NCBI GenBank assembly: GCA_964641245.1
Contig: CAZXML010000001.1
Location: 45,065-109,064 of the forward strand
From: an uncultured Gammaproteobacteria bacterium
GTDB lineage: Bacteria > Patescibacteriota > Patescibacteriia > Magasanikbacterales > GWA2-37-8
DNA length: 64,000 nucleotides
Reading direction: 5' to 3'
How positions within the stretch are numbered: position 1 is the stretch's first letter; every line of letters starts with the position of its first letter. Both the position numbers and the translations under genes were made by a program. Shown in pieces: positions 1 through 55,183 of the stretch. Under the pieces are notes generated by a model, which was not told where the DNA came from, made no database searches, and saw nothing but the letters and a program-made list of their open reading frames with translations.

Positions 1-80
1 TTTTATCAAGGCCAATATTTCCATGGAAAAACTGATGCAAAATGTCAGAAAAATAGCTAAGTGATAAGTATAGACTTGTT

Positions 81-467: not shown

Positions 468-497
468 ATTTTTATGTTAAAGGGGAGGTGGCTTAAC

Positions 498-1298
498 ATG
501 ATTCTGGTTTTAACTAACAGAATCTATGTAAAAAAACAGTTAGTTTTGGGTGGGGAGGGTCTAAAGGTAGGAAAAGATGTATTATTACTGGTTTTGTACC
601 AGATCTTTTTGGCCCTGGTCTCATTACCGTTATATCTTAGCGTAAAACCGGCGGGGTTGGCTGTTTATGTTAAAGATACGGCCACCTATACCAAAATTTC
701 CGCGGATTACAGTCTGCGCCGTATTTTAACCCTCACCGGTGTCGGCGTTTTTTTAATTATCTGGGTGGTAAAACTAATATTAATAATATCTCTGCCTAGT
801 TTTTACGGACCATTGCGTCTTTATGAAGTGGTAAATTTTCGTCCGGCCGATATTTTAAACAGCGATTTAGTGGCCACGGAAACAGGTATGCAAACTGCGC
901 GTGTTCTGTCTACAATTCCAATTCCAACCTTAAAAACTGCCACCAAAGTAAGCGGCGGAGATTATATTTTTTCCGGTTCAGCCACTCCGTTATCTACGGT
1001 CGCCTTGCTTTTATCCGGCAATCAAACCGCGGTTTATTCGGCAGTGGCAGATAAAAGCGGTAAATGGGAAATCAGCCACGCGCAAAGCGGGTTCCGGCTG
1101 GCCGAGGGCAATCATTCCATAATAATTTTTGAATACGATCAAAAAAACAGCGCCCGAGGGCAAGCCGCGCCGGAACAATATTTTAAAGTTACCACCAACA
1201 TCTGGGATAAAATTACCGGCAGTGTAGATACCATCGCCAATTGGTCGGTGGTCATTATTTTAATATTAGGGGTATTCCTAACTCTTCTCACTCTTTAA
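498..1298 (+). CDS. Membrane-anchored Ig-like domain protein, a short paralog of the giant gene's termini
   Basis: SD-like AAGGGGAGGTGG lies 8 nt before the second ATG (498). The N-terminal TM region SLPLYLSVKP...RRILTLTGVGVF matches the giant protein N-terminus. The C-terminus SG.A.P...D.SG.W.ISHAQSG...G.HSI plus a final TM helix matches the giant protein C-terminus. Confidence 0.6.
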   Translation: MILVLTNRIYVKKQLVLGGEGLKVGKDVLLLVLYQIFLALVSLPLYLSVKPAGLAVYVKDTATYTKISADYSLRRILTLTGVGVFLIIWVVKLILIISLPSFYGPLRLYEVVNFRPADILNSDLVATETGMQTARVLSTIPIPTLKTATKVSGGDYIFSGSATPLSTVALLLSGNQTAVYSAVADKSGKWEISHAQSGFRLAEGNHSIIIFEYDQKNSARGQAAPEQYFKVTTNIWDKITGSVDTIANWSVVIILILGVFLTLLTL

Positions 1299-1433: not shown

Positions 1434-4400
1434 ATGAAAGCAAGCTGGCTAAATATATTTTTCCATTTTTCCGGAAAAATATTCAAATTAAAACAAGGCT
1501 TAATTGCTTCCACCCGCTGGTATGTGGCGGTGTATTATGCTTTATTGTTGTTTTTTGTGGAGTTGGCTTTGGCTATTATTTCTTTTCCGCTGTATTTTTT
1601 GGTTTCTCCAAAAGATATTCAAAAAGGGGGATTATATTCGTTGCCCGGTCCGCAAGCGTCTATAAACGAATATCTTTGGCGCAGAAGAATCGGCCTTACC
1701 ACCGGTGTTGGCGCCACATCCGTATTTTTGCTTAAAGTTGTTTTAGTCGGCGTGGTCTCTTTTTATTTTTTGGGAGCGCAAAAATTGCTGGCCGATTCGC
1801 AAGATTGGACTTTTGGGACGCCATCGGATTATACATATAATTCTTCCATCGTTGAAATTACCGGCGGGGTTGCGCGGTTAAAAGATCTTGGAAGTTTGGT
1901 TGCCAGTAGCACAATTAATTCCGGTTTTACCACTAATTCGGTTGGTTGGACAAACGCAGATTGGACCGATCCAGGCAATGTAACTGTGGGCCAAACTCGG
2001 CAGACATCTGGTGGAAACACCGGCGCTTATGTAGATGTTGATATCGCGATAACCGGTTCGGCTACCGCAAATAGATCCGGCGCCGGTTATTGGCAACAAA
2101 CATTTATTACCAATGTTGCTACTCCGGATACCGCCACGTTAAATTTAGATTGGAAATCAATTACTTACACTTCGCCAACTCCGCCCGCTACATATCGGCT
2201 GTATGCTTTTATTGAAACTACCAGCGGCGCCCCCACCGCAACCAATACCGCTATTTGGAATAGCGGAGAAATTACCGCCGCCACCAGCTGGGCAAGTATT
2301 TCGGCCGTGGATATTGTTAGTAAAATTCCTACGGCCGGCACTTATTATTTAAAAATTGCCGCTTATGCTACCAGCCCATTGGCAACCGGAGCGTATTCTT
2401 TTATTTCCGGCTTTGACAATGTAATTGTAAATTGGTCCAAAACAACTCACTCGTATTCCACCGCCAACCCCACCACCACGCCGGTCGCTTCGCTGTCCGC
2501 GCCAAAAATTATGAGCTGGAACGGATTCACCGAAAACGCTACACTCAACGGCGGTTCAATCAGCTACCAACTCACCGCAGACAATGGAACAAATTGGAAA
2601 TACTGGAACGGCTCTGCTTGGGCAACGTCCAGCGTCAGTAATTTCAACATTGCCAGCGTTATTAATTCCAACATCGCTACTTTCCCCACATCATCCAATC
2701 AAATTAAATGGAGGGCGTACATGACCAGTGACGGAACACAACAAGTATCGCTAAGCGGAGTTTCTATTACATACACCCAAAACGATCCGCCGCACATCAT
2801 AAGTCTGTCGCCGGCGCAAAATACCGGCAATGGCACTGTATATGTTGCTTATAGTTTACAAGACGCCAACAGCGACCCGGAATCATTGGTTGATTATGAG
2901 TATTCATTAACCGGCGCGTTTGCCGGCGAGCAAACCACCATGACCGCTTCTACTTCTGATGCGGCGCATAATGGAATCACAGGATTAAGTTCCTCGCCAA
3001 TCGGCACCGCGCATACATTTGTTTGGGATGCCCGCGCCCAGCTTGGAAACATCGTCACCACCACTGTTTATGTACGCTTACGCGCCAACGACGGTATTGC
3101 TAACGGCGCCTATACCACCAGTTCCGTATTCACAGTAGATTATGTTGCGCCAATCGTTTCCAATGTTTCCGCCGTACAAACACCGGGCACAACCACTGTC
3201 AGTATTTCCTACGATTTAACCGATTTCACAGCGTCCGGTTTAAATGTTGAATTGGGAATCTCCAACGACAGCGGCAGTACCTGGACAATCGCCACTACCT
3301 CTGCCACAGGCAATGTGGGGAGTGGTCAAACCACCGGAACAGGCAAAACCATTACCTGGAACGCGGGCGCGGATTATTCCGGACAAAGCCTTTCTACAAT
3401 GCGGGCGCGGGTAAAAGCGCGTGATAACTGGCAAAACCAGGGAACATTCACCAGTTCTTCAAATTTTTCTTTAGACACTTTGGCCCCGGCCACTCTTGCC
3501 ACCGCCAATTTGCAAGCCCAGCCAAATGCCGGAGACACCACCGTGCTTATCGGCGGAACATTCACCGAAGCCAACCCCAATACCAATGATTTTTACGTTG
3601 CCATTAACAACGGTGTATATAGTAGCGCTACGGCCGGCACAGGTAATACCGCCTCGCCGTCAAACCAAGCCACCGATGTCGGCGCCACTTTAGACGGCAA
3701 TGATTTTATTTCCAAAGTTAAAATTACTCATACCGATGATTTTGGCAACTCCGGAAATAATGAAAATACATCGCCTACCACTACCTATATATATGTAAAG
3801 CCGTACACACCGTCCGCGCCGACATTAAATAATCCGGTAACTACTCGTTTGGATTTAACGATTAACCCGCATGCAAGTGAAACCAGTGGTTTGGAATACG
3901 CCATCCAGGAAACAACCAGCGGTTTTTTTGTCCAGACCGACGGAACTTTGGCCGCCAGCGTTGTCTGGCAAATTTTAGGAACAAGCGCCGGACAGTGGGG
4001 GAATATCACCGCAGTTTCCGGCAAGGCCCGCGTTACCGGTTTATCATCTCCGGTGGCCAATTATGTTTTTAAAGTAAAATCACGCAACACCGGCGATACG
4101 GCGCACGCCACCTCATCCGAATCCGCTTACTCCGCCACCGCGCAAATTACCAACACCGCGCCTTCGGTTTCATTATCAAGTTATTCTCAAACCACAGACG
4201 GAACCCGTTATGTGCCGATAAATTATACCGGCACAGACGCGCAGGGCGATATCAACAGTTTAAATCAACGCCAATATTCCACCGATAACAGCGCCTGGAA
4301 CACCATGACCGAAAAATCCGGCGTGGGTAGTAGCGGCATAACCAACCTCACATTCCTATCTGGTGGCAGTAGTTACAATTTTGCCTGGGATTCAAATACA

Positions 4401-7400
4401 GATTTGCCGAGCGTAGAGGACACCACTGTTTATGTCCGTTTGCGGTCTACCGACACTTTGGCCAGCAGTTCTTTGGCCACCTCCAACGCTTTCGAAATAG
4501 ACAATGTCAATCCGGTTATTTCTACCACCACAGCCAGCCAAGACAGCGGAGCCAGAACCGTAACCATCACCTATAATTTAACCGACGCTAATGCCAGCAA
4601 TGTGCTTTTGGAAATTTCATCCAATAGCGGTTCTACCTGGGTTGTGGCCACATCTTCCGCTACCGGCGCAGTTGGTTCCGGAGTAACAGCCGGTGCCGGT
4701 AAAACTATTACCTGGAACGCGGGTACGGATTTCAATAGTCAATACAACACAACTATGATGGTCCGCGTTACACCGCGGGATACTTTTGGTAATCTTGGTT
4801 CCAGCGCGTCATCGGCCAATTTTACAGTAGACACAAAATCTCCAACCGTTACCAATGTTACCGCCGTTCAAGATTCCGGCGCCTCAACATTTGTTTTCCA
4901 CTACGACATTGTCGAAGACTCCGGAAATTCTCGGGTTGTGCTGGCAATTTCATCCAACAGCGGTAGTACTTGGGTTGTGCCAACGTCTTCGGTTAGCGGA
5001 GATTACGGCGCCAGCGTCACTCCCGGCACCGGCAAAACAATTACTTGGGATGGGGGAGCGGATTATAGTAGTCAGGAAAAATCTACCATGCAAATCCGTC
5101 TTACAGCCACAGATAGTTTCTCAAATAACAGCGTAAACACATCGGCGGATTTTAATTTGGATACATATGCTCCGCGTATTACCAATGTCAGCGCTTCACA
5201 AAATGCCGGCAATACCACCGTGGCTATTTCTTACGATTTAGCGGATGCAAATACCTCCACAATTTTATTGCAAATTTCTTCGGACAATGGTTCCAGCTGG
5301 ACAGTGCCAACCACCACCGCCACCGGAAATCTGGGCAGTAATATTTCCGCCGGCACCGGTAAATCAATTTCCTGGAACGCCGGAACAGATTTCTCCGCCC
5401 AGGATATTTCCAACATGAAAATACGTTTGCGCGGTACCGATACATTTAGCAATCAATCCGGCTACGTAACATCTTCCGCGTTTGCCTTAGACACAAAATC
5501 TCCGGTTGTGGCCACCACCGCCAATTTGCAAGCCCAGCCCAACGCCGGCGACACCACCGCTTTAATCGGCGGATCATTTACCGAAACCAATCCAAACACC
5601 AATAATTTTTATGTCGCGCTTGATGGCGGTTCGTATGGTTCGGCTACCGCCGGCACGGGCAACACCGCTTCTCCTTCAGACCAAAGCACAGCCACCGGCG
5701 TCACCTTAAAAGGCAATAATTATATTTCCAAAGTTAAAATTGTTCACACCGATGATTTTGGATTGGCAACTACAAACGAAAACACATCGCCAGCTACCAG
5801 TTTAAAATATGTTAAACCTTATACACCGTCGGCGCCTACCGCGGATAATCCGGCAGTTGGTGAAGTGGATGTTTTGGTAAATGCTAATCCTTCGGAAGTT
5901 ACCGGTTTGCAATACGCAATTTACGAAACTACGCAAAGTAAGTATGTTCAGGCCAACGGCACACTTGGGGTTACACCAATTTGGCAGACCATCGGCACAT
6001 CATTTGGCCAGTGGGGGAACACCACCGCGATATCCGGTAAAATCCGCGTAAACGGATTGGCGAACGCTTCTTATACATATCAATTCAAAACCAAATCACG
6101 CAACAGCTCAGACTTTTTCAACACGGCCAGCAGTGAAAGCGCATTGTCCGCCGGCGCCTCTTCCGCCAATCAAGCGCCGTCAATTTCTATCAATTCGGCT
6201 GCTCAAACCACCAACGGCACTCAATATATTACAGTAAATTATACAGGTACGGATTTGGAAAGCGAAACTGTTTCGCTGGTCAGATACCAATATTCTACAG
6301 ACAACAGCATTTGGAACACAATGACGGAAAAATCAGGTGTTGGTTCGCAGGGAACAAGCGGTTTGGCATTTAGCGCCGCCGGAGCCAGTCATAATTTTGC
6401 CTGGGATGTTGGCGCGGATTTAGCAAACACCGAAGACACAACCGTTTACGTTAGACTCCAAGCCAACGACGGCACCAGCAGTGGAAACACCGCCGTATCC
6501 AGCGCGTTTGTGGTAGACACCAAAAATCCGGCCATTAGCAGTGTCACCGCCAGCCAAAATTCCGGCGCCGGCACCGTGGCTATTTCATATACTTTAACAG
6601 ACGACAGCACCAGCACGATAGTTATGGAAATGTCGTCCAGCAGTGGTTCTACCTATAATGTTTCCGTCAGTTCTGCAACCGGCAATGTAGGCGCAGGAAT
6701 TTCATCCGGCTCCGGTAAATCTATTTCCTGGAATGCCGGCACAGACTTTTCCGGTCAGGAATTATCTACCATGAAAACACGTTTACGCGCCACGGATGCA
6801 TTTGGCAACGTGGGTTCGTTATCCGCGTCCGGTTTGTTTGACTTAGACACCAAAGTTCCGGCTGTTTCCAACGTTTCGGCTATTCAAAGCGCCGGTGGCG
6901 GGTCCGTATCAATTACCTATGATTTAAGCGACACAAATCAAAGCACTGTTGTCTTGGAAGTTTCTTCAAGCAGTGGTTCTACCTGGCTAGTGCCGGTTAG
7001 TTCGGTTACCGGAGCGGTTGGTTCCGGAGTTTCGGGCGGTACCGGAAAGACAATTACGTGGAATGCTAATGCGGATTTCTCGGGCCAAGAATTTGCCGGC
7101 ATGATTGCGCGGGTTAGGGCCACCGATATTTATAGCAATGCCGGAAGCAATGTTCAGTCCGGAGCATTTTCCTTAGACACGAAAGCCCCGGTTGTATTAA
7201 ATGTTGGCGCTTCACAAACAGCCGGCACTACTACTGTGGTAATTTCTTACGATTTATCAGATTTGGGAACAAGCACGGTAGATGTTGAAATATCTTCCAA
7301 TAACGGTTTGGGTTGGACAGTGGCCACGAGCACACTTACGGGTTCGGTTGGCTCAAATATTACGGCTGGATTCGGCAAAACAGTAGTTTGGAATGCTAAA

Positions 7401-10400
7401 GTGGATTATTCCGGCCAAGACAGCAATTCAATGCGCGTCCGCGTGCGGGGCAGAGACCGATTTAATAACATCGGCGACTTTACTCAATCCACAGATTTTA
7501 ATTTAGACACATTATCTCCGGCAACACTCACCACCGCCGATTTAATTTCCCAGCCTAATGCCGGCGATACCACGGCTTCAATCGGAGGGTCATTTACGGA
7601 AACTCACCCCAACACCAATGATTTCTATATTGCTATTAATGGCGGGGCTTATGGTTCGGCCACTGCCGGTACAGCCAACACTGCCGCTCCATCCAATCAG
7701 GCCACTGGCGTTGGTGCTACTTTAACCGGTAATGATTATATTTCCAAAGTAAAAATTGCCCACGCCGATGATTTTGGCCAGGCAACCACCAACGAAAATA
7801 CTTCTCCGGCCACCAGCCTAAAATATGTTAAGCCGTACACACCGTCCGCTCCCACAGTAAATAATCCGCAAAATACTTCCGTAACCGTTGCCGTTAACTC
7901 GCATGCCAGCGAAAGCGCTTCTGTGGAGTACGCTATTGCCGAAGTTTCCACCGGTAATTATATACAAACCAATGGCACACTCGGCGCCAGCGCGGTTTGG
8001 AAAACGCTTGGCACCGGCGCCGGGAAGTGGGGGAATGTATCCGGCGTAACCGGCACAATTAGTGTCAGCGGTCTTACTTCACCGGTAGCAAATTACAGTT
8101 TTAAAGTTAAATCGCGCAATCCTTCGGACTCTCTGCACGCCTCCGCCAGCGAAAGTAATTTTTCCACTATCGTAGGAATCAGCAACACCGCGCCCGGTAT
8201 TTCCGTTTCCAGCGTTAGTCAGCAAACCGGCAATTCTTACGCTTTAATTAATTACGTCGGCACCGATACTCAAAATGACACAAACAATCTAAACGCGTTT
8301 GAATTTTCTACGAACACCGTAAATTGGTTTACTATGACTCAAAAATCCGGCGTGGGTAGTAGTGGAGTCAGCTCATTAATATTCTCATCAACCGGCACGA
8401 ACTTTATTTTTGCTTGGGATATTGCCACAGATTTGCCCGGATATGAATCCAGCGCCGTACGCATCCGCTTAAAATCCAATGACGGTCTTACAGACAGTAA
8501 TTTAGCGCAATCTTCCGCCTTCGCCGTAGATGCCAAAGCGCCGGTAGTTTCCGGTATCAGCGCCAGTCAAGCGCCAAGCACCGGTATATTTACTTTTGAA
8601 TATACTCTGGCCGATAATTCCGCCGCCAGCAATACAATCTCACTACAAATTTCCGATGATAGCGGTTCTACCTGGACCGTGCCCACCACTTCAGCATCCG
8701 GCGATGTTGGTAGCGGTGTATCCGCCGGTTCAGCCCGTTCTATAACATGGAATCCGGCCACCAATTATCCAAACGCCGAAAGTAGTAATTTCAGAATCCG
8801 AATTCGCGGTACCGATATATATAGTAATGTCGGATCCTATGCAACGTCCTCATTATTCGCCGTAGACACCAAAGGCCCCGTAGTCAGTTCGGTTTCAGCG
8901 GTACAAAGCACCAGCACGGGTAAAGTAACTGTTTCATATTCATTCTCCGACATCACTTCCGCCGGTAACTCAACCGAATTCCAGGTTTCTTCCAACAACG
9001 GCTCAACCTGGGTTGTTGCCACCACCACCCGTAGCGGAGAAATCGGTTCCGGTCAAAGCACCGGTTCAAAAACATTTATCTGGGACGCGCCCACGGATTT
9101 TAACGGCCAGTCCAATTCGCAAATGATGGTTCGCGTCCGCGCCACTGATTATTTTGGCAACCTTGGTAGTTTTACCAATTCTTCCGCTTTCTCGCTTGAT
9201 ACCGCCGCTCCGGTTGTTTCCAGTTTAACCGGCGTGCAAATAACCAATTCCACCACCGTTCAATTTACTTATAATTTAGCAGACACCCAATCCAGCGCAT
9301 CCGTCATCGCTCAAGTTTCCTCCGACGGCGGCAGTACCTGGACTGTTCCGGTCACAACACTTGCCGGAAATATCGGTTCTGCGGTTAACACTGGCAGTGG
9401 GCTCTCTATTACTTGGCTAGTCGGTACGGATTATGGCGGACAGGAATCAAATACAATGCGGGTGAGATTGCGGGCCACGGATAGTTATGGAAACGTTAGC
9501 GCATTTTTTACATCAGCAGATTTTTCTATAAATACGCTAGCGCCGGAGTCTGTCGTTTCTGCGCCGACTGTGTCAGGTGGAGTTGCAATGCCAGTATCCG
9601 TAGTAGCGGCAGTTATTGACCTTATCCCGCCTGCCGCGCCACTTGTGTTTAGCCCAACTGCCGGTAGTGTAATCGGTGAGGCTGAGCCGACTATAATTGG
9701 CGGCTCTGAACCTGGAGCAGTTATCAACATTGTTTTGGAAGGAGAAAATAAGTTTATTGCCGAAGCGGACGCTAATGGCGCTTGGCGATTCATCTTGCCG
9801 TCGCAATTTGCTCTTCAAAACGGACAACATATCTTTACTTTAACGGCCGTTGATCAGGCCGGCAATGTTAGCGCCCCAACACAATTCACTCTTACAAAAT
9901 CTTCTTCAGCGCCGGTTAGCGCCGTTTCACCAGCTGGTGGTACTGCCGGCCTCCCCGGGCTTCTTTCAGGTGTTTTACCACCCACCCCATCCGTCGCATT
10001 AGTCCGCCAAAATATAGAAGCCACCGAAGTAGCATCCTTGCAGGTACCAAAAATTAGTACCACCACGCCCGGCGTAGTGGGCAGTGATTTTGTGTTCTCC
10101 GGCACGGCTCTGCCAAATCAGGAAGTACTGGTATATTTCCACAGTAGTCAGGCTCTTATCTACCGCACCCGTTCCGACAGCAACGGTTTCTGGCAGGTAG
10201 CCCACGCGCAAAGCACCGCCGAATTAACACCCGGTGATCATACAATCTTTGCCGTCTCCGTAGATCCGGTGAACAAAGTAAAAAGCCGGCCCAGCGCGGT
10301 TTCCAGTTTCACCATAAGAAAAAATTTCTGGGTAAGCGTATTCAACGTGTTAAATCTCCAGACCACATTAGTTACTTTAATGGTTCTTGGGTTCACCATG

Positions 10401-10445
10401 CTTTGGCTTTACCGTCTGCGAGTTAGGCAGGGTGTTGAGGTTTAG
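1434..10445 (+). CDS. Giant (3003 aa) repetitive cell-surface protein with N- and C-terminal TM anchors and Ig/FN3-like tandem domains
   Basis: 9-kb uninterrupted ORF. At least 10 copies of a ~100-aa domain (ISYDLTD...SGSTWT...TGNVGSG...GKTITWNAG.DYSGQ...RVRA.D). Three ~680-aa super-repeats start at about 3480, 5510 and 7500, each beginning LQAQPNAGDTT. C-terminal Ig-like domains are followed by a hydrophobic helix and the tail RLRVRQGVEV. Confidence 0.85.
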   Translation: MKASWLNIFFHFSGKIFKLKQGLIASTRWYVAVYYALLLFFVELALAIISFPLYFLVSPKDIQKGGLYSLPGPQASINEYLWRRRIGLTTGVGATSVFLLKVVLVGVVSFYFLGAQKLLADSQDWTFGTPSDYTYNSSIVEITGGVARLKDLGSLVASSTINSGFTTNSVGWTNADWTDPGNVTVGQTRQTSGGNTGAYVDVDIAITGSATANRSGAGYWQQTFITNVATPDTATLNLDWKSITYTSPTPPATYRLYAFIETTSGAPTATNTAIWNSGEITAATSWASISAVDIVSKIPTAGTYYLKIAAYATSPLATGAYSFISGFDNVIVNWSKTTHSYSTANPTTTPVASLSAPKIMSWNGFTENATLNGGSISYQLTADNGTNWKYWNGSAWATSSVSNFNIASVINSNIATFPTSSNQIKWRAYMTSDGTQQVSLSGVSITYTQNDPPHIISLSPAQNTGNGTVYVAYSLQDANSDPESLVDYEYSLTGAFAGEQTTMTASTSDAAHNGITGLSSSPIGTAHTFVWDARAQLGNIVTTTVYVRLRANDGIANGAYTTSSVFTVDYVAPIVSNVSAVQTPGTTTVSISYDLTDFTASGLNVELGISNDSGSTWTIATTSATGNVGSGQTTGTGKTITWNAGADYSGQSLSTMRARVKARDNWQNQGTFTSSSNFSLDTLAPATLATANLQAQPNAGDTTVLIGGTFTEANPNTNDFYVAINNGVYSSATAGTGNTASPSNQATDVGATLDGNDFISKVKITHTDDFGNSGNNENTSPTTTYIYVKPYTPSAPTLNNPVTTRLDLTINPHASETSGLEYAIQETTSGFFVQTDGTLAASVVWQILGTSAGQWGNITAVSGKARVTGLSSPVANYVFKVKSRNTGDTAHATSSESAYSATAQITNTAPSVSLSSYSQTTDGTRYVPINYTGTDAQGDINSLNQRQYSTDNSAWNTMTEKSGVGSSGITNLTFLSGGSSYNFAWDSNTDLPSVEDTTVYVRLRSTDTLASSSLATSNAFEIDNVNPVISTTTASQDSGARTVTITYNLTDANASNVLLEISSNSGSTWVVATSSATGAVGSGVTAGAGKTITWNAGTDFNSQYNTTMMVRVTPRDTFGNLGSSASSANFTVDTKSPTVTNVTAVQDSGASTFVFHYDIVEDSGNSRVVLAISSNSGSTWVVPTSSVSGDYGASVTPGTGKTITWDGGADYSSQEKSTMQIRLTATDSFSNNSVNTSADFNLDTYAPRITNVSASQNAGNTTVAISYDLADANTSTILLQISSDNGSSWTVPTTTATGNLGSNISAGTGKSISWNAGTDFSAQDISNMKIRLRGTDTFSNQSGYVTSSAFALDTKSPVVATTANLQAQPNAGDTTALIGGSFTETNPNTNNFYVALDGGSYGSATAGTGNTASPSDQSTATGVTLKGNNYISKVKIVHTDDFGLATTNENTSPATSLKYVKPYTPSAPTADNPAVGEVDVLVNANPSEVTGLQYAIYETTQSKYVQANGTLGVTPIWQTIGTSFGQWGNTTAISGKIRVNGLANASYTYQFKTKSRNSSDFFNTASSESALSAGASSANQAPSISINSAAQTTNGTQYITVNYTGTDLESETVSLVRYQYSTDNSIWNTMTEKSGVGSQGTSGLAFSAAGASHNFAWDVGADLANTEDTTVYVRLQANDGTSSGNTAVSSAFVVDTKNPAISSVTASQNSGAGTVAISYTLTDDSTSTIVMEMSSSSGSTYNVSVSSATGNVGAGISSGSGKSISWNAGTDFSGQELSTMKTRLRATDAFGNVGSLSASGLFDLDTKVPAVSNVSAIQSAGGGSVSITYDLSDTNQSTVVLEVSSSSGSTWLVPVSSVTGAVGSGVSGGTGKTITWNANADFSGQEFAGMIARVRATDIYSNAGSNVQSGAFSLDTKAPVVLNVGASQTAGTTTVVISYDLSDLGTSTVDVEISSNNGLGWTVATSTLTGSVGSNITAGFGKTVVWNAKVDYSGQDSNSMRVRVRGRDRFNNIGDFTQSTDFNLDTLSPATLTTADLISQPNAGDTTASIGGSFTETHPNTNDFYIAINGGAYGSATAGTANTAAPSNQATGVGATLTGNDYISKVKIAHADDFGQATTNENTSPATSLKYVKPYTPSAPTVNNPQNTSVTVAVNSHASESASVEYAIAEVSTGNYIQTNGTLGASAVWKTLGTGAGKWGNVSGVTGTISVSGLTSPVANYSFKVKSRNPSDSLHASASESNFSTIVGISNTAPGISVSSVSQQTGNSYALINYVGTDTQNDTNNLNAFEFSTNTVNWFTMTQKSGVGSSGVSSLIFSSTGTNFIFAWDIATDLPGYESSAVRIRLKSNDGLTDSNLAQSSAFAVDAKAPVVSGISASQAPSTGIFTFEYTLADNSAASNTISLQISDDSGSTWTVPTTSASGDVGSGVSAGSARSITWNPATNYPNAESSNFRIRIRGTDIYSNVGSYATSSLFAVDTKGPVVSSVSAVQSTSTGKVTVSYSFSDITSAGNSTEFQVSSNNGSTWVVATTTRSGEIGSGQSTGSKTFIWDAPTDFNGQSNSQMMVRVRATDYFGNLGSFTNSSAFSLDTAAPVVSSLTGVQITNSTTVQFTYNLADTQSSASVIAQVSSDGGSTWTVPVTTLAGNIGSAVNTGSGLSITWLVGTDYGGQESNTMRVRLRATDSYGNVSAFFTSADFSINTLAPESVVSAPTVSGGVAMPVSVVAAVIDLIPPAAPLVFSPTAGSVIGEAEPTIIGGSEPGAVINIVLEGENKFIAEADANGAWRFILPSQFALQNGQHIFTLTAVDQAGNVSAPTQFTLTKSSSAPVSAVSPAGGTAGLPGLLSGVLPPTPSVALVRQNIEATEVASLQVPKISTTTPGVVGSDFVFSGTALPNQEVLVYFHSSQALIYRTRSDSNGFWQVAHAQSTAELTPGDHTIFAVSVDPVNKVKSRPSAVSSFTIRKNFWVSVFNVLNLQTTLVTLMVLGFTMLWLYRLRVRQGVEV

Positions 10446-13357: not shown

Positions 13358-13741
13358 TTGAATATGCCGAGCGCCAGAAACACAATTCTTATCGTGGAGG
13401 ACGATTTGGACCTGCTGGAGGTTTTAAGAAAAAAATTTATCATGGAGAAATTTGAGGTATTACAAGCCCCGGACGGAAAAATTGGTTTGGAGGAAGCGTT
13501 GCGCAGTCATCCGGATTTAATTTTGTTGGATATTATAATGCCGATTATGGATGGGATGACTATGTTGGCCAAATTGCGCCAGGATTCCTGGGGGAAAAAT
13601 GTATCGGTAATATTGCTGACAAACCTAAGTGATGAAAGCAAAGTGGCCGAGGGGCTGAAACACGGAGTATACGACTATCTGGTTAAGGCCGATTGGAATA
13701 TTGGTGATGTGGTAAAAAAAGTTAAAGCCAGACTTAAATAA
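13358..13741 (+). CDS. Stand-alone response-regulator receiver protein
   Basis: ILIVEDDLDLLEVL...ILLDIIMPIMDGM...ILLTNL. 127 aa, receiver only. Confidence 0.8.
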   Translation: MNMPSARNTILIVEDDLDLLEVLRKKFIMEKFEVLQAPDGKIGLEEALRSHPDLILLDIIMPIMDGMTMLAKLRQDSWGKNVSVILLTNLSDESKVAEGLKHGVYDYLVKADWNIGDVVKKVKARLK

Positions 13742-14749: not shown

Positions 14750-15829
14750 ATGTCCAAAAAAATCCATCTCCTGCTCGGCCTATTGTCCGCGCTGGTCCTC
14801 ACCGGCGCCGGCTGTATTCAGTTTACAAATTCCGCGCAGGGGCCAATGGGGGTTTTCCGGTCAGCTGATGCCGGTGAAACCTGGGCGTCAAAATCTGTTT
14901 TGCTTAGCGCGCAGGGAGTAAAAAGCCTGGCCGGAGCCAAAGTTTACAAAATTTTTACCGACCCCGGCGACCCCAAAGCCTTGTATATGGGCACACGCGG
15001 CCAAGGTTTGTATTATAGCTACGATAACGGCGATACCTGGCAGGGCACAGCGGTAATGGCCGGCAAGTACATTTACGCTTTAGCCGTAGACCCGCGCGAT
15101 AAGTGCGTTATTTATGTCAGCGATGGCCAGCATATTTATAAAACATCGGATTGCCAAAGAACTTGGGATTTATTATTCAGCGAAGAGCGAACCACGCAAA
15201 GATTTGTGGCTTTGGCCGTAGATAACAGCGATTCAAAAATAATTTATGGCGCGGAATTGGGCGGAGATATTTTCCGCAGTAAAGACGGCGGGCAAAGCTG
15301 GCGTATTATTAAACGCTTTGGTTTTGAAATGCGCCATTTAGCTGTAGATCCGTTAAGCGCGCACCGTTTGTTTGCCGCCGCGTACAACCAAGGTCTATTC
15401 CGTTCCGATGACGGCGGAGAAACCTGGGTTAGTGCCACCGACGGCTTTCAAAATTTCAACGACAGCTTTACTTTTAACCGTTTTGTCTTAAACCCATCTC
15501 AAAAAGACAGTATATTCTGGATTTCCAAATATGGCATCCTGCGTTCCGACAACGCCGGCGCTTCCTGGACAGATATCAAACTACTCACTCCGCCCGGCAG
15601 TGTAAATATTTATGGCTTTGCCATCAACCCAAAAAATCCGCTTGAAATGTATTACACCGGCACAATCCTAGGAGATAAAAATGAAAACGTCCGCAGTACT
15701 CTGTACAAATCCGTAGACGGCGGAGTAAACTGGGTCACAAGAAAACTCCCGTCTAACACCATACCGGTAGATATGCTTACCAGCCGAGAAAACGGCAAGA
15801 TGTTGTTTTTAGGATTCACGACGTTGTAA
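14750..15829 (+). CDS. BNR/Asp-box repeat beta-propeller lipoprotein
   Basis: Lipobox LTGAGC after a signal peptide. Seven S-x-D-x-G-x-T/S-W repeats (SADAGETW, YDNGDTW, SKDGGQSW, SDDGGETW, SDNAGASW, SVDGGVNW). Confidence 0.7.
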   Translation: MSKKIHLLLGLLSALVLTGAGCIQFTNSAQGPMGVFRSADAGETWASKSVLLSAQGVKSLAGAKVYKIFTDPGDPKALYMGTRGQGLYYSYDNGDTWQGTAVMAGKYIYALAVDPRDKCVIYVSDGQHIYKTSDCQRTWDLLFSEERTTQRFVALAVDNSDSKIIYGAELGGDIFRSKDGGQSWRIIKRFGFEMRHLAVDPLSAHRLFAAAYNQGLFRSDDGGETWVSATDGFQNFNDSFTFNRFVLNPSQKDSIFWISKYGILRSDNAGASWTDIKLLTPPGSVNIYGFAINPKNPLEMYYTGTILGDKNENVRSTLYKSVDGGVNWVTRKLPSNTIPVDMLTSRENGKMLFLGFTTL

Positions 15830-15856: not shown

Positions 15857-15928
15857 TGTCATTCTGAGCATAGCGAAGAATCCCTCTCGTTTATGTGTAA
15901 GGGATCCTTCACTTCGTTCAGGATGACA
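15857..15928. repeat. Family-A miniature palindromic element (variant)
   Basis: TGTCATTCTGAGCATAGCGAAGAATCCCTC...GGGATCCTTCACTTCGTTCAGGATGACA. Confidence 0.8.
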
Positions 15929-19099: not shown

Positions 19100-20383
19100 A
19101 TGCACAAAATTTCAAAGTTAAAAAACGGCATCAATCTTATCAAAATTCCTTTAAAAGGAAGCAAAGCCCTCACCGTCATGGCCATGTTTCCGGTTGGTTC
19201 GCGTTATGAAGACAAAAAACTTTCCGGCGCTTCGCATTTTGTGGAACACATGATGTTTAAGGGCACCAAAAAACGCCCCACTCATTTAGAAATTTCCCGC
19301 GAACTGGATTCCTTGGGCGCCGAATACAACGCCTTCACTTCCAAAGATTATACCGGTTATTATGTAAAAACCGGAGAAGTTAATACCGAAAAAGCTTTTG
19401 ACTGGCTGGCCGATATTATTTTTAATTCCAAAATGGACGCGGAGGAAATCGCCAAAGAAAAAGGTGTGATTGTGGAAGAATTACGGATGTATGAAGACAA
19501 TCCGTTGATGGCTGTAGATACTTTGTTTGAAAAAGCCATGTTTGGCGATCATCCGCTGGGCTGGGATGTGGGCGGTACCCCGGAAACCGTAAACGGTTTA
19601 AGCCGGGCTGATTTGTGGAATTATTATCAAAATTATTATTTACCCAGCAACATGGTTTTAATCGTGGCCGGCAATCTTAATGAAAAAAAACTGGCAAAAT
19701 CATTAAAACTTTTTGCGGCAGACAGGGCAAAAGATAGAAAGCATGATTTAAAAGCAAATTTTACCAAGTTTGTCTGGCCAAAAACCATTTTACCTTTGGA
19801 AAACAGAGTGGTAGTCTCCGAAAAAAAACTGGACCAGGCGCAGGTAATTCTTGGCTTTCCCGGGCTACATTATAATGACCCCGACCGTTTTGCCGCTTCG
19901 GTGTTATTCAATATTTTAGGCGGAGGCATGAGTTCCAGATTATTTGTGGAAGTGCGCGAAAAACGCGGCTTGGCCTATATGGTCAATGCCGGCGCCGGTT
20001 CATTCCGCGATGTCGGAGTGGCTAGTATTCAAGCCGGTTTGGATCCTTCCCGGCTAGCCGACGCTCTTAAAGTTATAAAAGACGAATTAATAAAAATAAC
20101 AAAAGAACCGGTTTCAGCTAAAGAATTATTGGATTCAAAAAATAATATTGCCGGACGAACCGAACTGGCCATGGAAGATTCCAGCGCGCAAGCTCAATGG
20201 TTTGCCAAACAATTTTGGTTTGCCAACAAAATAGAATCATACGACGAAGTGGTAAAACAAATTAAGCGCGTGACGGTCGCGGATGTAAAAAAGCTGGCCA
20301 AAAAATTATTTGATTTAAATCAAATGCGCGTGGCCGTAATCGGCCCGATGAGCAGAGAAAAAGTTTTGGATTTACTAAAGTAA
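19100..20383 (+). CDS. M16 (pitrilysin/insulinase) family zinc peptidase
   Basis: Inverted zinc motif HFVEHMMFKGT (HxxEH). About 430 aa with a two-domain M16 architecture. Confidence 0.75.
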   Translation: MHKISKLKNGINLIKIPLKGSKALTVMAMFPVGSRYEDKKLSGASHFVEHMMFKGTKKRPTHLEISRELDSLGAEYNAFTSKDYTGYYVKTGEVNTEKAFDWLADIIFNSKMDAEEIAKEKGVIVEELRMYEDNPLMAVDTLFEKAMFGDHPLGWDVGGTPETVNGLSRADLWNYYQNYYLPSNMVLIVAGNLNEKKLAKSLKLFAADRAKDRKHDLKANFTKFVWPKTILPLENRVVVSEKKLDQAQVILGFPGLHYNDPDRFAASVLFNILGGGMSSRLFVEVREKRGLAYMVNAGAGSFRDVGVASIQAGLDPSRLADALKVIKDELIKITKEPVSAKELLDSKNNIAGRTELAMEDSSAQAQWFAKQFWFANKIESYDEVVKQIKRVTVADVKKLAKKLFDLNQMRVAVIGPMSREKVLDLLK

Positions 20384-20393
20384 CCTATATTTC

Positions 20394-20524
20394 TGTCATC
20401 CCCCCGACCCATTAATTGTCATTCTGAGCAAAGCGAAGAATCTCTGTCCGTTCGGCGATTGAGACAGAGATCCTTCACTGCGTTCAGGATGACAGTTGGC
20501 GCAAGACTCGCTCGGAATGACAAA
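20394..20524. repeat. Cluster of a TGTCATCC fragment, a family-A element and a partial GAATGACA terminus
   Basis: CTGTCATCCCCCCGACC, then the full A element 20417-20494, then CTCGGAATGACA. Confidence 0.75.
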
Positions 20525-20535
20525 CGCACAAACAT

Positions 20536-21288
20536 ATGAATAATAAAAAAATCTACCTATTCGCCAACTGGAAAATGTACCTGGATTACGATGAAAGTAA
20601 TATTTTAGCGAACGCTATTGCTGATAAGAAAAAAATTATTCCAAAATCCGTAAAAATGGCAATTTTCCCAAGCGCTTTGTCGCTTTATCCTGTGGGGCAG
20701 GTTTTGCATGATGCCGGCATTAGTGTTGGCGCGCAAAATACATATTGGTTAGACAAAGGTGGGTACACCGGTGAAGTGTCAGCCGTCATGTACAACGAAG
20801 CCGGATGTGAGTATGCTTTAACTGGTCATTCCGAACGCAGGCACTTGTTTCACGAAACCAACGATGAGGTGCGTAAAAAAGTAGAAGCAATTTTATCTGC
20901 GGGATTAACTCCGGTTATTTGCGTTGGCGAAACTGAAAAAGAACGAAAAGAAAATAAATCCGACGAGGCCATTGAAATTCAAATCAGAGCCGCCTTTCAC
21001 AATATTGTCTGGCCAAAGGAACGGGAATTAATTGTGGCCTATGAACCGGTTTGGGCTATTGGCACCGGAGAAAATTGCGATCCGATTGAAGCCGAACGGA
21101 TGCATGAACTGATCAAAAAACAAATTATCGCGTTAACCGGCATCACTCCCGTTATTTTATATGGAGGCAGTATCAATCCCAAAAATATTGCCGGATATTT
21201 AAAAAATCCGAACATAAACGGCGTATTGGTCGGTAGCGCGTCGGCTAATTATGAAAGCTGGATGGAAATTATATCTAATAGTTTTTAA
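20536..21288 (+). CDS. tpiA: Triosephosphate isomerase
   Basis: FANWKM, GHSERR, AYEPVWAIGTG and YGGS motifs. Confidence 0.9.
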   Translation: MNNKKIYLFANWKMYLDYDESNILANAIADKKKIIPKSVKMAIFPSALSLYPVGQVLHDAGISVGAQNTYWLDKGGYTGEVSAVMYNEAGCEYALTGHSERRHLFHETNDEVRKKVEAILSAGLTPVICVGETEKERKENKSDEAIEIQIRAAFHNIVWPKERELIVAYEPVWAIGTGENCDPIEAERMHELIKKQIIALTGITPVILYGGSINPKNIAGYLKNPNINGVLVGSASANYESWMEIISNSF

Positions 21289-21289
21289 T

Positions 21290-21435
21290 TGTCATTCTGA
21301 GCAAAGCGAAGAATCTCTGTCCGCATATTGTCATTCCCGCCCGAGAGCGGGAATCCAGACAATTCAACCGGACACTGGATTCCCAATCAAGTTGGGAATG
21401 ACAGACAGAGATCCTTCACTGCGTTCAGGATGACA
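21290..21435. repeat. Nested elements: a family-D palindrome (TGTCATTCCCGC...GGGAATGACA, 21339-21404) inserted inside a family-A element
   Basis: The A left half is at 21290-21328 and the A right half at 21405-21435. They are interrupted by a complete D-type element. Confidence 0.8.
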
Positions 21436-21471
21436 ATCTAATTCAAGTTTGTTCCGATTAAAAGTAGTAGT

Positions 21472-22377
21472 ATGCTAAACGCATTATTTATAATAATCAT
21501 CATTGCCGCCCTCGCCGTTATTTTGTTTTTGGTTATCCGCAAATTTCCTCATCTGGCAAATTTGGATATTCAAAATCTGGACGAAGAAAAAATTTACCGC
21601 AAGAAAAAAGAAATTATAAATAAGCGCATAGAAAAAAGTAGCGGCCTTTTAAAAGAAAAAATTATCAGAAGTCTTGTGCCGGTCAGCAAATTGTGGGGAA
21701 GGCTTCAGCTCCAATTTAGAATATATGTGGGAAAAATAGAAAGACTTCTTCATCATGAGCAGGTGCTTAAAACAAAACAAAAAAAGACTGTTGTCGGCAA
21801 CGAAGAGAGCGGACAAAAATTAACTTCCTTAATTCAGGAAGGCGAACAGCAGTTAAAAGCGGGCAATTACGATAAAGCCGAAGAAGTTTTTATCTCCGCC
21901 ATAAAAATTGACCCGAAATCTGCGGTCGCTTATAGAGGATTAGGCGATACCTATTTGGCCAAAAATTCTCTGGAGGAAGCCAGACAGACTTATAAATTTT
22001 TAATCAGAATGGAACCGGACGACGATAATGTGTTGGTCAAATTGGCGGAAATAGCGGAAAGCCATGGCGATCTGGAAGAGGCGATACATCATTACCAGCA
22101 GGCGGTTTTGGTCAATGATTCATTTTCCCCGCGTTTTTATCACTTGGCCGAACTGCTGGTAAAGGTGGGCCAACCGCAGGTGGCGGTAGAATCTATTCTG
22201 CAGGCCGTAGAACTGGAACCCCAAAATCCAAAGTACCTTGACTTATTGATAGAAATTGCTATAATATGCGGCAATAAAGAGTTGGCGCTTAAAGGTTACG
22301 GAGAATTACGCTTAGTCAACCCCGACAATCAAAAATTACCCAGTTTCAAAGATAGAATTTATCGAATAGGCGTATAA
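21472..22377 (+). CDS. TPR-repeat protein with an N-terminal TM helix
   Basis: N-terminal hydrophobic segment. Repeated A..Y...G/A..Y...G TPR-like helices (AYRGLGDTYLAK, ARQTYKFLIRMEPDD). Confidence 0.6.
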   Translation: MLNALFIIIIIAALAVILFLVIRKFPHLANLDIQNLDEEKIYRKKKEIINKRIEKSSGLLKEKIIRSLVPVSKLWGRLQLQFRIYVGKIERLLHHEQVLKTKQKKTVVGNEESGQKLTSLIQEGEQQLKAGNYDKAEEVFISAIKIDPKSAVAYRGLGDTYLAKNSLEEARQTYKFLIRMEPDDDNVLVKLAEIAESHGDLEEAIHHYQQAVLVNDSFSPRFYHLAELLVKVGQPQVAVESILQAVELEPQNPKYLDLLIEIAIICGNKELALKGYGELRLVNPDNQKLPSFKDRIYRIGV

Positions 22378-22632: not shown

Positions 22633-23241
22633 ATGCCTAATAAAAAAATTACAAAAGAACAGGAAGCCTTAGTAAAGAGTTTGTATTCTAGCGGAAAAAT
22701 GGGGTTGGAAATTGCCACTAAGTTAGAAATTTCTCTTAAACAAGTTTACGGTTCTCTCCGCCGTCAACAAATACCACGCAAGAGCTTACGTGAGCAAAAT
22801 AAAGTTCTTTTTGAGAGAAAGCCATTGTCGTTTCGTTTTAAGGAAAAACTCACAACAAAGGAACGTGAACTCCTGATTGCGGCGATTATGCTGTATTATG
22901 GCGAGGGCGCAAAAACATCTGTTACGGTTGATTTTGCGAATTCAGATGGTCGGACAGTTAAATTATTTTTAAAGTTTTTAAGGAAAATTTGTCGTATAGA
23001 CGAGAAGCGATTGCGGTTTTATTTGTACTGTTTTTCAGATCAAGATTCTAATTCTTTGATTAGTTATTGGTCGTCTCAATTGAAAGCTGAACGAAATCAA
23101 TTCACAAAACCATACGTGCGTTCAACTTTCAACAGAGGCAGTAGAGCAATGCCTTACGGAGTAATTCATGTGCGATATAGTGATAAGAAATTATTAGACA
23201 AAATTCTATCACTATGTAATAGTTTGGTCGTGTCGTTATAA
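22633..23241 (+). CDS. Hypothetical HTH protein, possibly a degenerate LAGLIDADG-like homing endonuclease
   Basis: N-terminal HTH (GLEIATKLEISLKQVYGSL). LIAAIMLYYGEGAK loosely resembles a LAGLIDADG motif. It lies between a tRNA and the tmRNA candidate. Confidence 0.3.
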   Translation: MPNKKITKEQEALVKSLYSSGKMGLEIATKLEISLKQVYGSLRRQQIPRKSLREQNKVLFERKPLSFRFKEKLTTKERELLIAAIMLYYGEGAKTSVTVDFANSDGRTVKLFLKFLRKICRIDEKRLRFYLYCFSDQDSNSLISYWSSQLKAERNQFTKPYVRSTFNRGSRAMPYGVIHVRYSDKKLLDKILSLCNSLVVSL

Positions 23242-23244
23242 AAT

Positions 23245-23527
23245 GGGTGGATTCCTGAGCGGTCAAAAGGGGCAGACTGTAGTAAAATGCAGCTCTTGAG
23301 GGAAACTTCAGGATGAACTTTCTGGGATAACGGTGAAAGCTAAGGCAGGTGCTATGCCAATACCGTGGGAACCCCGATATTTGGTCGGGGGCGCCGTAGA
23401 GACTAGATACCAGAGTGCCTAAAGTCAATGTGACTAAGGCAAAGATATAGTCCACGCCAGAAGGAAACTTTTGGATTAGTGAAATCTGCTGGCTCCGCCT
23501 TCGTAGGTTCGAATCCTACTCCACCCA
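23245..23527 (+). ncRNA. ssrA: Probable tmRNA (ssrA); the tRNA-like domain is clear but the tag ORF is not resolved
   Basis: The 5' GGGTGGA pairs with the 3' TCCACCC. A perfect T-arm GTAGG-TTCGAAT-CCTAC and a discriminator A follow. About 283 nt, with no ORF. Confidence 0.5.
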
Positions 23528-23936: not shown

Positions 23937-24009
23937 GCCGTTGTAGCTCAGTTGGTAGAGCATTTCCATGGTAAGGAAAAGGTCTCGGGTTCGAATCCCG
24001 ACAACGGCT
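23937..24009 (+). tRNA. tRNA-Thr (anticodon GGU)
   Basis: Acceptor GCCGTTG/CAACGGC, D-arm GCTC-AGTTGGTA-GAGC, anticodon stem TTTCC/GGAAA with loop ATGGTAA, T-arm TCGGG-TTCGAAT-CCCGA. Confidence 0.75.
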
Positions 24010-44953: not shown

Positions 44954-45105
44954 TAGTCGGCAAGGGAGTGGACAACTTACTATATATACATATCAATCAT
45001 TGCGGTGTAGCTGGATCGTAGTTATACAACGTCTAAATGTCCGTATAACTTAACCATCTGGTGCTGATATCGCGGCAGTGATTGGTATTTTTTAAAACTA
45101 AAATT

Positions 45106-54362: not shown

Positions 54363-55013
54363 ATGTGGTATTTGTACTTAGACGAAAGTGGTGATTTGGG
54401 TTTTGATTTTGTAAATAAAAAACCATCGAAATTTTTTACGGTTGCCATTTTGGCATTGAGCACCCGCGACGCTAATCGCCAGATGATTAAAGCGGTTAAA
54501 ATTACGTTGCGTCGCAAGCTCAACAGCGCCAAGCGTCAAAAAAGAATCGCTCAGGAACTTAAAGGTACTGGTACAACGATAGAAGTAAAAAAGTATTTTT
54601 TCGGAAAGGCAAAAAAAATTAAATTTGGCATCTACTCTATAACGTTGAATAAGAAAAAAGTTTTTGAAAGATTAGCTAAAGATAAGCCGCGTATCTATAA
54701 CTATATCGCTCGTAAAGTTTTAGACCAAATTCCTTTTGAAAAGAATAATGGTGATAGGGTAGAGTTAATATTAGATAAATCAATGGCTAAACCGGAGATC
54801 GCTGAGTTTAATTCCTACATTCGTCGACAGTTGGAGGGCCGTTTATCACCCACCATTCCTTTGGATATTTATCACTGGCTTTCGCATGAGAATTACGGCT
54901 TGCAGGCTGTGGATTTGTTTTCTTGGGGGATATTTCAAAAATATGAACGACAAAACACCGAATGGTATGGTGTATTTGATGAAAAAGTAAGATTTGATGA
55001 ACAATTTTTATAA
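54363..55013 (+). CDS. DUF3800 family protein
   Basis: The N-terminal YLYLDESGD motif is the hallmark of DUF3800. Confidence 0.55.
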   Translation: MWYLYLDESGDLGFDFVNKKPSKFFTVAILALSTRDANRQMIKAVKITLRRKLNSAKRQKRIAQELKGTGTTIEVKKYFFGKAKKIKFGIYSITLNKKKVFERLAKDKPRIYNYIARKVLDQIPFEKNNGDRVELILDKSMAKPEIAEFNSYIRRQLEGRLSPTIPLDIYHWLSHENYGLQAVDLFSWGIFQKYERQNTEWYGVFDEKVRFDEQFL

Positions 55014-55183
55014 AACAAAAAAGCCCCTTGCGGGGAGGTAGCCTTATAGATTTGTGATGCCTAGATTATAGCCAACCGATGGATGGGAACATCTAGAACA
55101 ATCTACAAAGGACTTATACCTGACTCTAGAATACAGCTTTTTAACCTAAATGTCAATAGTTATCCACAGGTCATTTTATGCCT

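Follow-up and report, generated by a model that had tools for sequence, protein, structure and literature searches.

The 64,000-nucleotide (nt) stretch of DNA analysed here (contig CAZXML010000001.1 of assembly GCA_964641245.1, forward-strand positions 45,065 to 109,064; "the window") encodes a giant protein of 3003 amino acids (aa) which, judged by gene order and sequence comparison, belongs to a conserved cassette: two CheY-like receivers, a small paralogue of the giant termed "mini", the giant itself, and often then a polytopic PAS histidine kinase with a further receiver. The cassette, which was missed by the original prediction for the giant gene, is the most informative feature of the locus. 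The authors propose, with confidence and doubt about evenly balanced, that the giant is a fibrillar-adhesin-like surface fibre which attaches to a glycan-bearing surface and whose function is coupled to the phosphorelay. We treat it as a candidate device for contact with a host or a surface, with the adhesin reading as a plausible hypothesis.

The genes of the cassette in the window were assigned as follows.

2–64 (+): 3' end of RRa, the upstream receiver, cut by the window edge; it translates to FIKANISMEKLMQNVRKIAK followed by the stop and fits the C-terminal consensus (Y)FIKANT.M.KI of the first receiver in the related loci L002 to L006
81–467 (+): RRb, a stand-alone CheY-like receiver of 128 aa without output domain (Pfam Response_reg, 78.7 bits, cut-off 30.2)
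474–1298 (+): mini, 274 aa, in which a single Big_13-like Ig domain lies between an N-terminal transmembrane (TM) module of two segments and a C-terminal TM helix
1434–10445 (+): the giant, 3003 aa
10466–13342 (+): sensor histidine kinase, 958 aa, with about eight TM segments (aa 25–300), three PAS domains, HisKA and HATPase_c (Pfam and hydropathy)
13358–13741 (+): downstream stand-alone receiver, 127 aa (Pfam Response_reg, 80.3 bits)

Gene order was compared in 36 loci, six of them reached via homologues of the giant and 30 taken from GTDB species representatives via mini (L034 is the same contig as L001). At least two receiver open reading frames (ORFs) stand directly before mini in all 33 loci with upstream sequence (scan with our own hidden Markov models, HMMs), and the giant, or frame protein, starts right after mini in 31 of the 34 loci with downstream sequence. 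The fetched stretch includes a kinase in 16 loci; the kinase takes the same position as here in L003, L005, L006, L009, L014, L022, L028 and L031. The gene directly upstream of mini is an RRb orthologue in L001 to L006 (59–73% identity), and the downstream receiver is 50–58% identical to the receivers after the kinase in L005 and L006. The two-component assignment follows from the domains themselves: both HisKA and HATPase_c match above the Pfam cut-off, and the translation of RRb contains an acidic pocket (E16-D17-D18), the phospho-acceptor Asp (D60), the Ser/Thr position (S89) and the Lys (K110).

Some loci deviate from this order. The giant is split into two or three consecutive ORFs in L016, L025 and L029 (frameshifts, assembly errors or pseudogenes), and mini is not directly followed by the giant in L026, L032 and L035; the kinase follows in L035, and a frame protein is found 6.4 kb downstream in L032. 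In L005 a PilB-like (MshEN + T2SSE) and a PilC-like (T2SSF) type IV pilus gene follow directly after the cassette (19513–21546). No PilB/PilC-like pilus genes occur in the 64 kb of the window.

The relationship between mini and the giant lies in their ends. Residues 2–59 of mini match residues 1–59 of the giant (BLASTP, E 2e-5), and residues 142–244 match residues 2863–2966 (BLASTP, E 1e-13, 30% identity). By hydropathy, hydrophobic segments are located at aa 30–58, 83–114 and 249–274 of mini and at aa 29–59, 86–116 and 2967–2990 of the giant, and an N-terminal peptide (M..WLN...S....K.K), read as cytoplasmic, is conserved in both proteins. According to these alignments mini is a miniature of the two ends of the giant. 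At least 180 homologues of mini were found, almost all of them 273 aa long and all unnamed proteins of Patescibacteria; a profile search with mini among 1.84 billion representatives gave 714 matches at E<=1e-3.

The gap between the mini and giant genes measures 135 nt in the window, compared to −4 to +85 nt in L001 to L006, and it is occupied by an intergenic palindrome resembling a repetitive extragenic palindromic (REP) element (1322–1403, left arm GTCATTCTGAGCAAAGCGAAGAATC). The predicted hairpin has about 35 bp (−50.4 kcal/mol, z −6.6). Further left arms start at 15858, 19005, 20418, 21291 and 50665, so that the window contains six copies, all on the + strand and each just 3' of a stop codon, where none would be expected by chance. 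Its role may be that of a terminator or of an element for RNA stability, or it may be a mobile palindrome. A scan of the sequence for promoter and terminator consensus motifs gave no excess over shuffled sequence.

The giant was divided into modules at a recurring linker (F-x-[VLI]-D-x-x-x-P), and HMMs built on its own modules read the chain as TMN-N1-N2-C-D-(A-B-C-D-D-D)x3-T. The parts, with nucleotide positions in the window where assigned, are the following.

1434–1778 (+), aa 1–115: N-terminal membrane module, consisting of a basic amphipathic N-terminus, hydrophobic segment 1 (29–59), a basic loop and hydrophobic segment 2 (86–116)
1779–2441 (+), aa 116–336: N1, predicted beta jelly-roll of carbohydrate-binding-module (CBM) type
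2442–2795 (+), aa 337–454: N2, a beta-sandwich with the Asp-box-like motif DNGTNW
2796–3488 (+), aa 455–685: leading C0-D0, one extra C-D pair ahead of the first super-repeat
3489–5504 (+), aa 686–1357: super-repeat 1 (SR1), 672 aa, A1-B1-C1-D1a-D1b-D1c
5505–7520 (+), aa 1358–2029: super-repeat 2 (SR2), 672 aa, A-B-C-D-D-D
7521–9545 (+), aa 2030–2704: super-repeat 3 (SR3), 675 aa, A-B-C-D-D-D
aa 2705–3003: C-terminal region, holding the next three parts
9669–9896 (+), aa 2746–2821: Big_13/Big_6 bacterial Ig-like domain (Pfam)
10020–10331 (+), aa 2863–2966: terminal Ig-like domain common to giant and mini (BLASTP against mini), conserved across the family
10332–10442 (+): C-terminal anchor, composed of an LNLQTT motif, a hydrophobic helix and a basic tail (WLYRLRVRQGVEV; hydropathy)

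Taken together the chain holds N1, N2, 24 FN3-like beta-sandwiches (C0-D0 and three A-B-C-D-D-D super-repeats) and two Ig-like Big domains, i.e. about 28 beta-sandwich domains. A chunked BLASTP comparison of the protein with itself yields a strict periodicity of 672 residues. The anatomy given in the original prediction, namely a giant surface protein with three super-repeats and TM anchors at both ends, agrees with this layout; its super-repeat starts (~3480, ~5510 and ~7500) lie within about 20 nt of those found here and its module motifs are correct. It had also seen the repeated D modules, of which each super-repeat has exactly three and not "two or three". The identity of about 80% at the nucleotide level was set too high: globally, pairs of super-repeats are 50–57% identical in protein and 69–71% in nucleotide sequence (SR2 versus SR1 56.8% and 71.2%; SR3 versus SR1 and SR2 50–52% in protein), and 74–79% nucleotide identity is reached only in stretches of 250–380 nt in module A. 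C0 is 31–41% identical to C1–C3, and D0 42–55% to the other D modules.

The giant has no cysteine. Its ectodomain is acidic (net charge about −78) and rich in Ser, Thr and Asn, with Ser and Thr making up 28%. The GC content of the gene (window 2001–10000) is 0.49 compared to 0.41–0.44 in the flanks, with a negative GC skew on the coding strand. Horizontal acquisition was considered as a reason for the raised GC content and rejected, as the Ala/Gly/Thr/Ser-rich composition accounts for it. Most orthologues with three super-repeats are longer than this protein by about 180 aa (about 3170–3205 versus 3003 aa): at 9546–9668 (aa 2705–2745) it lacks, in frame, the FN3 and the first Big domain which in P0016, P0026 and others come after the final D module.

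Sequence models recognize little of this chain. In Pfam searches with the whole protein and with single modules, A, B, C, D, N1 and N2 had no match at E<=10, which includes the fn3 model (PF00041) for modules A–D, and NCBIfam gave nothing above cut-off in the giant. The only domain recognized by Pfam is the one at aa 2746–2821 (Big_13 59 bits, cut-off 27; Big_6 36.6 bits, cut-off 27.6). Structure prediction provides more. The AlphaFold2 model of aa 686–1137 (A-B-C-D, built with 19 homologous segments) consists of four all-beta sandwiches with a mean pLDDT (predicted local distance difference test) of 92.8 and a pTM (predicted template modelling score) of 0.77, the latter suggesting a fixed inter-domain geometry. 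Foldseek against the PDB returned tandem FN3/Ig arrays as best matches (thick-filament titin/MyBP-C, contactin FN1-3, fibronectin FN7-10) with E-values of 7e-9 to 1e-5 at 10–15% identity. On the strength of this model all four module types are FN3-like at fold level, with the seven-strand sandwich of the FN3 type. The earlier "FN3-like" label for module B thus stands for the fold, not for its restriction to B. A "cadherin" label for module C was rejected; neither a sequence match in Pfam nor a cadherin in the lists of fold matches supports it.

Each of the ten D modules carries one Asp-box-like motif, S-x-[DNS]-x-G-x-[ST]-[WY]. The D module was modelled as an FN3-like sandwich, not as a sialidase-type beta-propeller. 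A comparison with Asp-box (BNR) beta-sandwiches such as reelin subrepeat B leads to the same distinction: the Pfam match is below the cut-off of 27, and the D modules are predicted to be neither sialidase-type propellers nor reelin jelly-rolls.

For the N-terminal part (aa 1–454) AlphaFold2 gave pLDDT values mostly of 83–93 for N1 and N2 (mostly 86–92 for N2), while the loop that joins the two hydrophobic helices stayed below 50. The predicted structure of N1 is the beta jelly-roll common to the CBM4/16/22/61 families, and N1 may therefore be a CBM-like, glycan-binding head. N2 was found in every family member, down to a form of only 909 aa.

A protein search revealed 61 clear members of the family, which all come from Patescibacteria metagenomes and, where named, are called "hypothetical" or "Ig-like domain-containing". 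Together with the named related loci, all of which belong to Patescibacteria, they bear out the origin from the candidate phyla radiation (CPR) assumed in the original prediction. Named records fall into Uhr-, Buchanan-, Magasanik-, Falkow- and Paceibacteria (Uhrbacteria are placed within the Patescibacteria group by NCBI), with a few mislabelled "Gammaproteobacteria". As far as these searches reach, the family does not occur outside Patescibacteria, and neither Pfam nor NCBIfam has a name for it. The identical module string, TMN-N1-N2-C-D-(ABCDDD)x3-T, occurs in 28 proteins of 3003–3205 aa from independent assemblies. Other members carry one or four super-repeats. When the HMMER scan was widened, both ends turned up on proteins of 909–5686 aa whose super-repeats number from zero to six.

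The super-repeats were also compared by position. SR1 is 56–68% identical to the SR1 of orthologues, SR2 51–59% to their SR2, and SR3 46–58% to their SR3 (52–58% in four of the five tested), while the paralogous super-repeats within one protein share 49–57%. For each super-repeat of the window, the counterpart at the same position in other species is thus a closer match than are most of the paralogues within the protein. Because the super-repeats are positionally orthologous, the triplication is old: it predates the divergence of the lineages, with each position kept by selection. Recent repeat expansion or concerted evolution was rejected for the same reason.

The orientation of the chain in the membrane can be addressed by the charges around its hydrophobic segments. 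Hydropathy peaks at 2.49 and 2.31 in the two N-terminal segments (TM1 and TM2), and the last segment of the giant is followed by RLRVRQ. On average over the family the N-terminus contains 4.9 and the inter-helix loop 7.6 Lys/Arg residues, whereas the 27 residues after TM2 contain 0.9 Lys/Arg versus 3.3 Asp/Glu. The positive-inside rule was used to orient the helices. Based on this rule and on the charge bias around TM2 we infer that TM2 is an N-in/C-out signal-anchor, leaving the bulk of the protein (about 2850 residues) outside. Directly after TM2 the motif LLA(D/A)xQ(D/N)W, in which A120 is invariant, represents a possible signal-peptidase I site. At the other end a tripartite pattern is present in about 55 homologues (LN[LW]xTT, about 17 hydrophobic residues, WLYR[IL][KR]K), and its helix probably serves to stop transfer and to anchor the chain. 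Sortase substrates likewise end in a TM helix with a basic tail, but the motif ahead of it here is LN[LW]xTT and not LPXTG. Searches of the giant for LPXTG, LPXT[GASN], NPQTN, RTX, PEP and PGF motifs were all negative, GG.G.D (the repeat of RTX/LapA-type substrates of type I secretion systems) has zero matches anywhere in it, and neither Pfam nor NCBIfam detected an SLH or other S-layer anchoring or lattice domain.

These observations allow a mechanistic proposal for the surface fibre. About 2850 residues would be exported via the TM2 signal-anchor until the C-terminal helix stops the transfer. The beta-sandwich chain could span about 100 nm, a length similar to the radius of an ultra-small cell. 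If the site LLA|(D/A)xQ is cleaved, the CBM-like head would come to lie at the far end of the stalk, where it could bind a glycan on a host cell or another surface; if it is left uncleaved, the chain would be a doubly anchored loop. Mini, which has its three membrane segments and its membrane-proximal Ig domain in common with the giant, would most likely co-assemble with it in the membrane as a base or partner. The upstream receivers and the downstream PAS kinase with its receiver might couple the fibre to a phosphorelay, either controlling it or reporting on it.

Among known systems the closest likeness is to fibrillar adhesins in the sense of Monzon, Lafita and Bateman 2021 (PMC8286594), for example the Gram-positive SasG, Cna and Rib-repeat proteins. 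Shared features are one chain of very great length, a lectin- or CBM-like domain (in the giant a predicted one) near a terminus, a tandem Ig/FN3-like stalk, a C-terminal anchor and a monoderm-type envelope; the stalk in particular is represented by 24 tandem FN3-like modules, the AlphaFold2 model and the matches to FN3/Ig arrays. The giant differs in having no LPXTG or other catalogued anchor, with a TM helix and basic tail and an N-terminal two-segment module in their place. Its stalk modules are old, diverged (40–57% aa identity) and position-specific rather than near-identical, and none is in Pfam. It is further organized in super-repeats of six domains and comes with an obligatory mini paralogue and a two-component cassette.

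Giant size and a long run of beta-sandwich extenders are also found in the Ca2+-stiffened RTX adhesins, such as MpIBP of Marinomonas primoryensis and LapA (PMC5550230, PMC7493085), and conserved Asp residues near the inter-domain linkers of the giant (Y.L.D, R.R..D, F.vDt..P) are putative Ca2+ sites. Unlike these proteins the giant has no RTX nonapeptides, no type I secretion signal and no LapG-type retention module, its extenders are non-identical, and its host is a monoderm without outer membrane. The A-band super-repeats of titin (FN3/Ig) resemble it in their higher-order FN3-type organization with positions individually conserved between species, and titin is among the top structural matches; nevertheless there is no homology beyond the fold (10–15% identity), and since the giant is prokaryotic, extracytoplasmic and membrane-anchored, this is an analogy only.

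Giant membrane proteins were proposed as host-attachment factors in the CPR bacterium Vampirococcus lugosii (PMC8080830), and adhesins are required for the epibiotic growth of a Saccharibacterium (PMC10633639). The giant genes of Omnitrophota belong to different families (bioRxiv 10.1101/2023.11.21.568195). The protein described here shares with the Vampirococcus lugosii and Omnitrophota giants a very large size, a predicted membrane or surface location, an ultra-small host-dependent bacterium and a proposed role in attachment. It differs from them in family and in domains, e.g. SecA-DEAD, dockerin and many TM segments in the Omnitrophota proteins. In the literature on CPR bacteria and giant proteins we found no description of the giant family, the mini paralogue or the linked two-component cassette.

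Several points weigh against an adhesin. Both its binding and its surface location are predictions from sequence. The putative head N1 adjoins the N-terminal membrane module, which also sets it apart from fibrillar adhesins, and it would be distal only if that module is cleaved off. The orientation of TM1 is ambiguous, both of its flanks being basic, and no known anchor family (SLH, LysM, CHU_C and others) or adhesive-domain family was detected in the giant by Pfam or NCBIfam. Identity of the single modules to those of orthologues ranges from 0.45 to 0.71, with module A highest (0.64–0.71) and N1 at 0.53; N1 is thus no more variable than the stalk and does not form the hypervariable tip that an arms race would predict. 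Finally, the stalk repeats, old and specific for their position, are unlike the near-identical, fast-evolving stalks of adhesins and would fit a fixed structural or signalling role equally well.

Such a signalling role is the subject of one alternative, which we consider rather unlikely: the giant ectodomain together with mini could be a contact- or mechano-sensing receptor, that is, the sensory input of the adjacent phosphorelay. A ligand or tension on the fibre would act through the shared three-helix membrane frame on the PAS kinase and from there on the CheY-like receivers. As none of the receivers in the cassette has an output domain, these would work by protein-protein contact, for instance with the basic N-terminal peptides of mini and giant or with pilus machinery; the conservation of that cytoplasmic peptide in both proteins and the PilB/PilC-like genes after the cassette in L005 are in agreement with this. 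The near-invariant order receiver-receiver-mini-giant, often with kinase and receiver adjacent, would be expected as well, and the kinase, with its approximately eight TM segments, has no recognizable extracellular sensor domain of its own. An ectodomain that is conserved uniformly and without a hypervariable tip also suits a receptor. Adjacency, however, gives no direction of information flow, and the two-component system could regulate transcription or turnover of the fibre via an unlinked factor. In addition, conservation of the kinase's membrane domain extends to L003 but not to L005 or L006.

The structural role leads to a second alternative that we likewise regard as improbable, namely an envelope scaffold or coat, in which the chain, still anchored at both ends, would cover the surface directly or in a loop and serve as a structural layer or molecular ruler. 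In a titin-like manner each super-repeat position would contact a fixed partner in the envelope and not a foreign cell. The hydrophobic anchors are conserved at both ends across the family, the super-repeats are positionally orthologous and evenly conserved as those of titin, and Foldseek ranks the cardiac thick-filament titin/MyBP-C array first. The pTM of the four-domain segment points in this direction too, and the CBM-like N1 beside the membrane could bind the wall polysaccharide of the cell itself. It is hard to square a ruler for a conserved structure with a super-repeat number that varies from 0 to 6 between related species. Moreover, no SLH or other wall-binding family was detected, and a dedicated signalling cassette would be unusual for a purely structural coat protein.

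A bolder version of the sensing idea, which we judge doubtful, combines most of these elements: giant and mini might form a new kind of contact or tension sensor, in which an FN3-like fibre of about 100 nm with a CBM-like head and a three-helix frame talks directly to the PAS kinase. The two output-less receivers would bind the N-terminal peptides (or pilus motors) and switch the cell between free and host-attached states, and the number of super-repeats (0–6) would tune the reach.

The weakest explanation is an assembly artefact, i.e. super-repeats produced by collapse or expansion in mis-assembly, or a chimeric ORF. The gene is internally repetitive and is split into two or three ORFs in three related assemblies (L016, L025 and L029), so that errors or pseudogenes do occur in the family. 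Here, however, the reading frame (3003 codons with one terminal stop) is open across 9009 nt with zero internal stops. The warning of an assembly hazard in the original prediction finds no support: exact repeats within the gene do not exceed 25 nt and every 31-mer is unique, and the hazard for k-mer assembly is therefore low. With super-repeats only about 70% identical at the nucleotide level, an identical module string in 28 orthologues from independent assemblies, and each super-repeat nearest to the same-position repeat of other species, an artefact is extremely improbable; from this sequence evidence mis-assembly is effectively excluded and the copy number of three super-repeats is trustworthy.

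To our knowledge it is essentially unknown how CPR bacteria other than Saccharibacteria find and hold their partners. As these bacteria are uncultured, candidate molecules have to come from genomes. The cassette is conserved across the candidate phyla Uhr-, Buchanan-, Magasanik- and Falkowbacteria and physically links a giant surface fibre, as predicted, to a phosphorelay, which provides concrete targets for experimental tests. It occupies about 14% of the 64-kb window in a lineage with genomes below 1 Mb, and therefore strong selection is implied. Among fibrillar-adhesin-like giants this one is set apart by an unusual three-segment membrane frame, titin-like super-repeats, an obligatory mini paralogue and a dedicated two-component cassette; with them come four beta-sandwich module families and the mini/giant "frame" family, which are not covered by Pfam or NCBIfam.

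Apart from the cassette, the window consists of ordinary chromosomal DNA carrying housekeeping genes, in which a few features were noted. At 14750–15829 (+), 1 kb downstream of the cassette, lies the gene of a 359-aa BNR/Asp-box, Sortilin-Vps10-like propeller protein with sub-threshold NCBIfam similarity to the F510_1955 family glycosylhydrolases; this is a further Asp-box protein close to the giant. The gene at 37661–39658 (+) encodes a TrwB/VirD4-like type IV coupling protein (TrwB_AAD_bind, T4SS-DNA_transf), which may be part of the type IV secretion system of Patescibacteria discussed in PMC12102498. An Rfam match to a group I intron at 23270–23474 (+) is barely above threshold (50.5 bits, gathering score 50). 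It lies in a tRNA cluster, between an unannotated ORF of 202 aa (22633–23241) and tRNA-Thr(ggt) at 23937. The association of the DUF3800-V RNA motif with DUF3800 genes is known, and the window holds such a pair: the motif at 55031–55128 (−), with 53.6 bits at a gathering score of 37.4, adjoins a DUF3800 protein gene at 54363–55013 (+).

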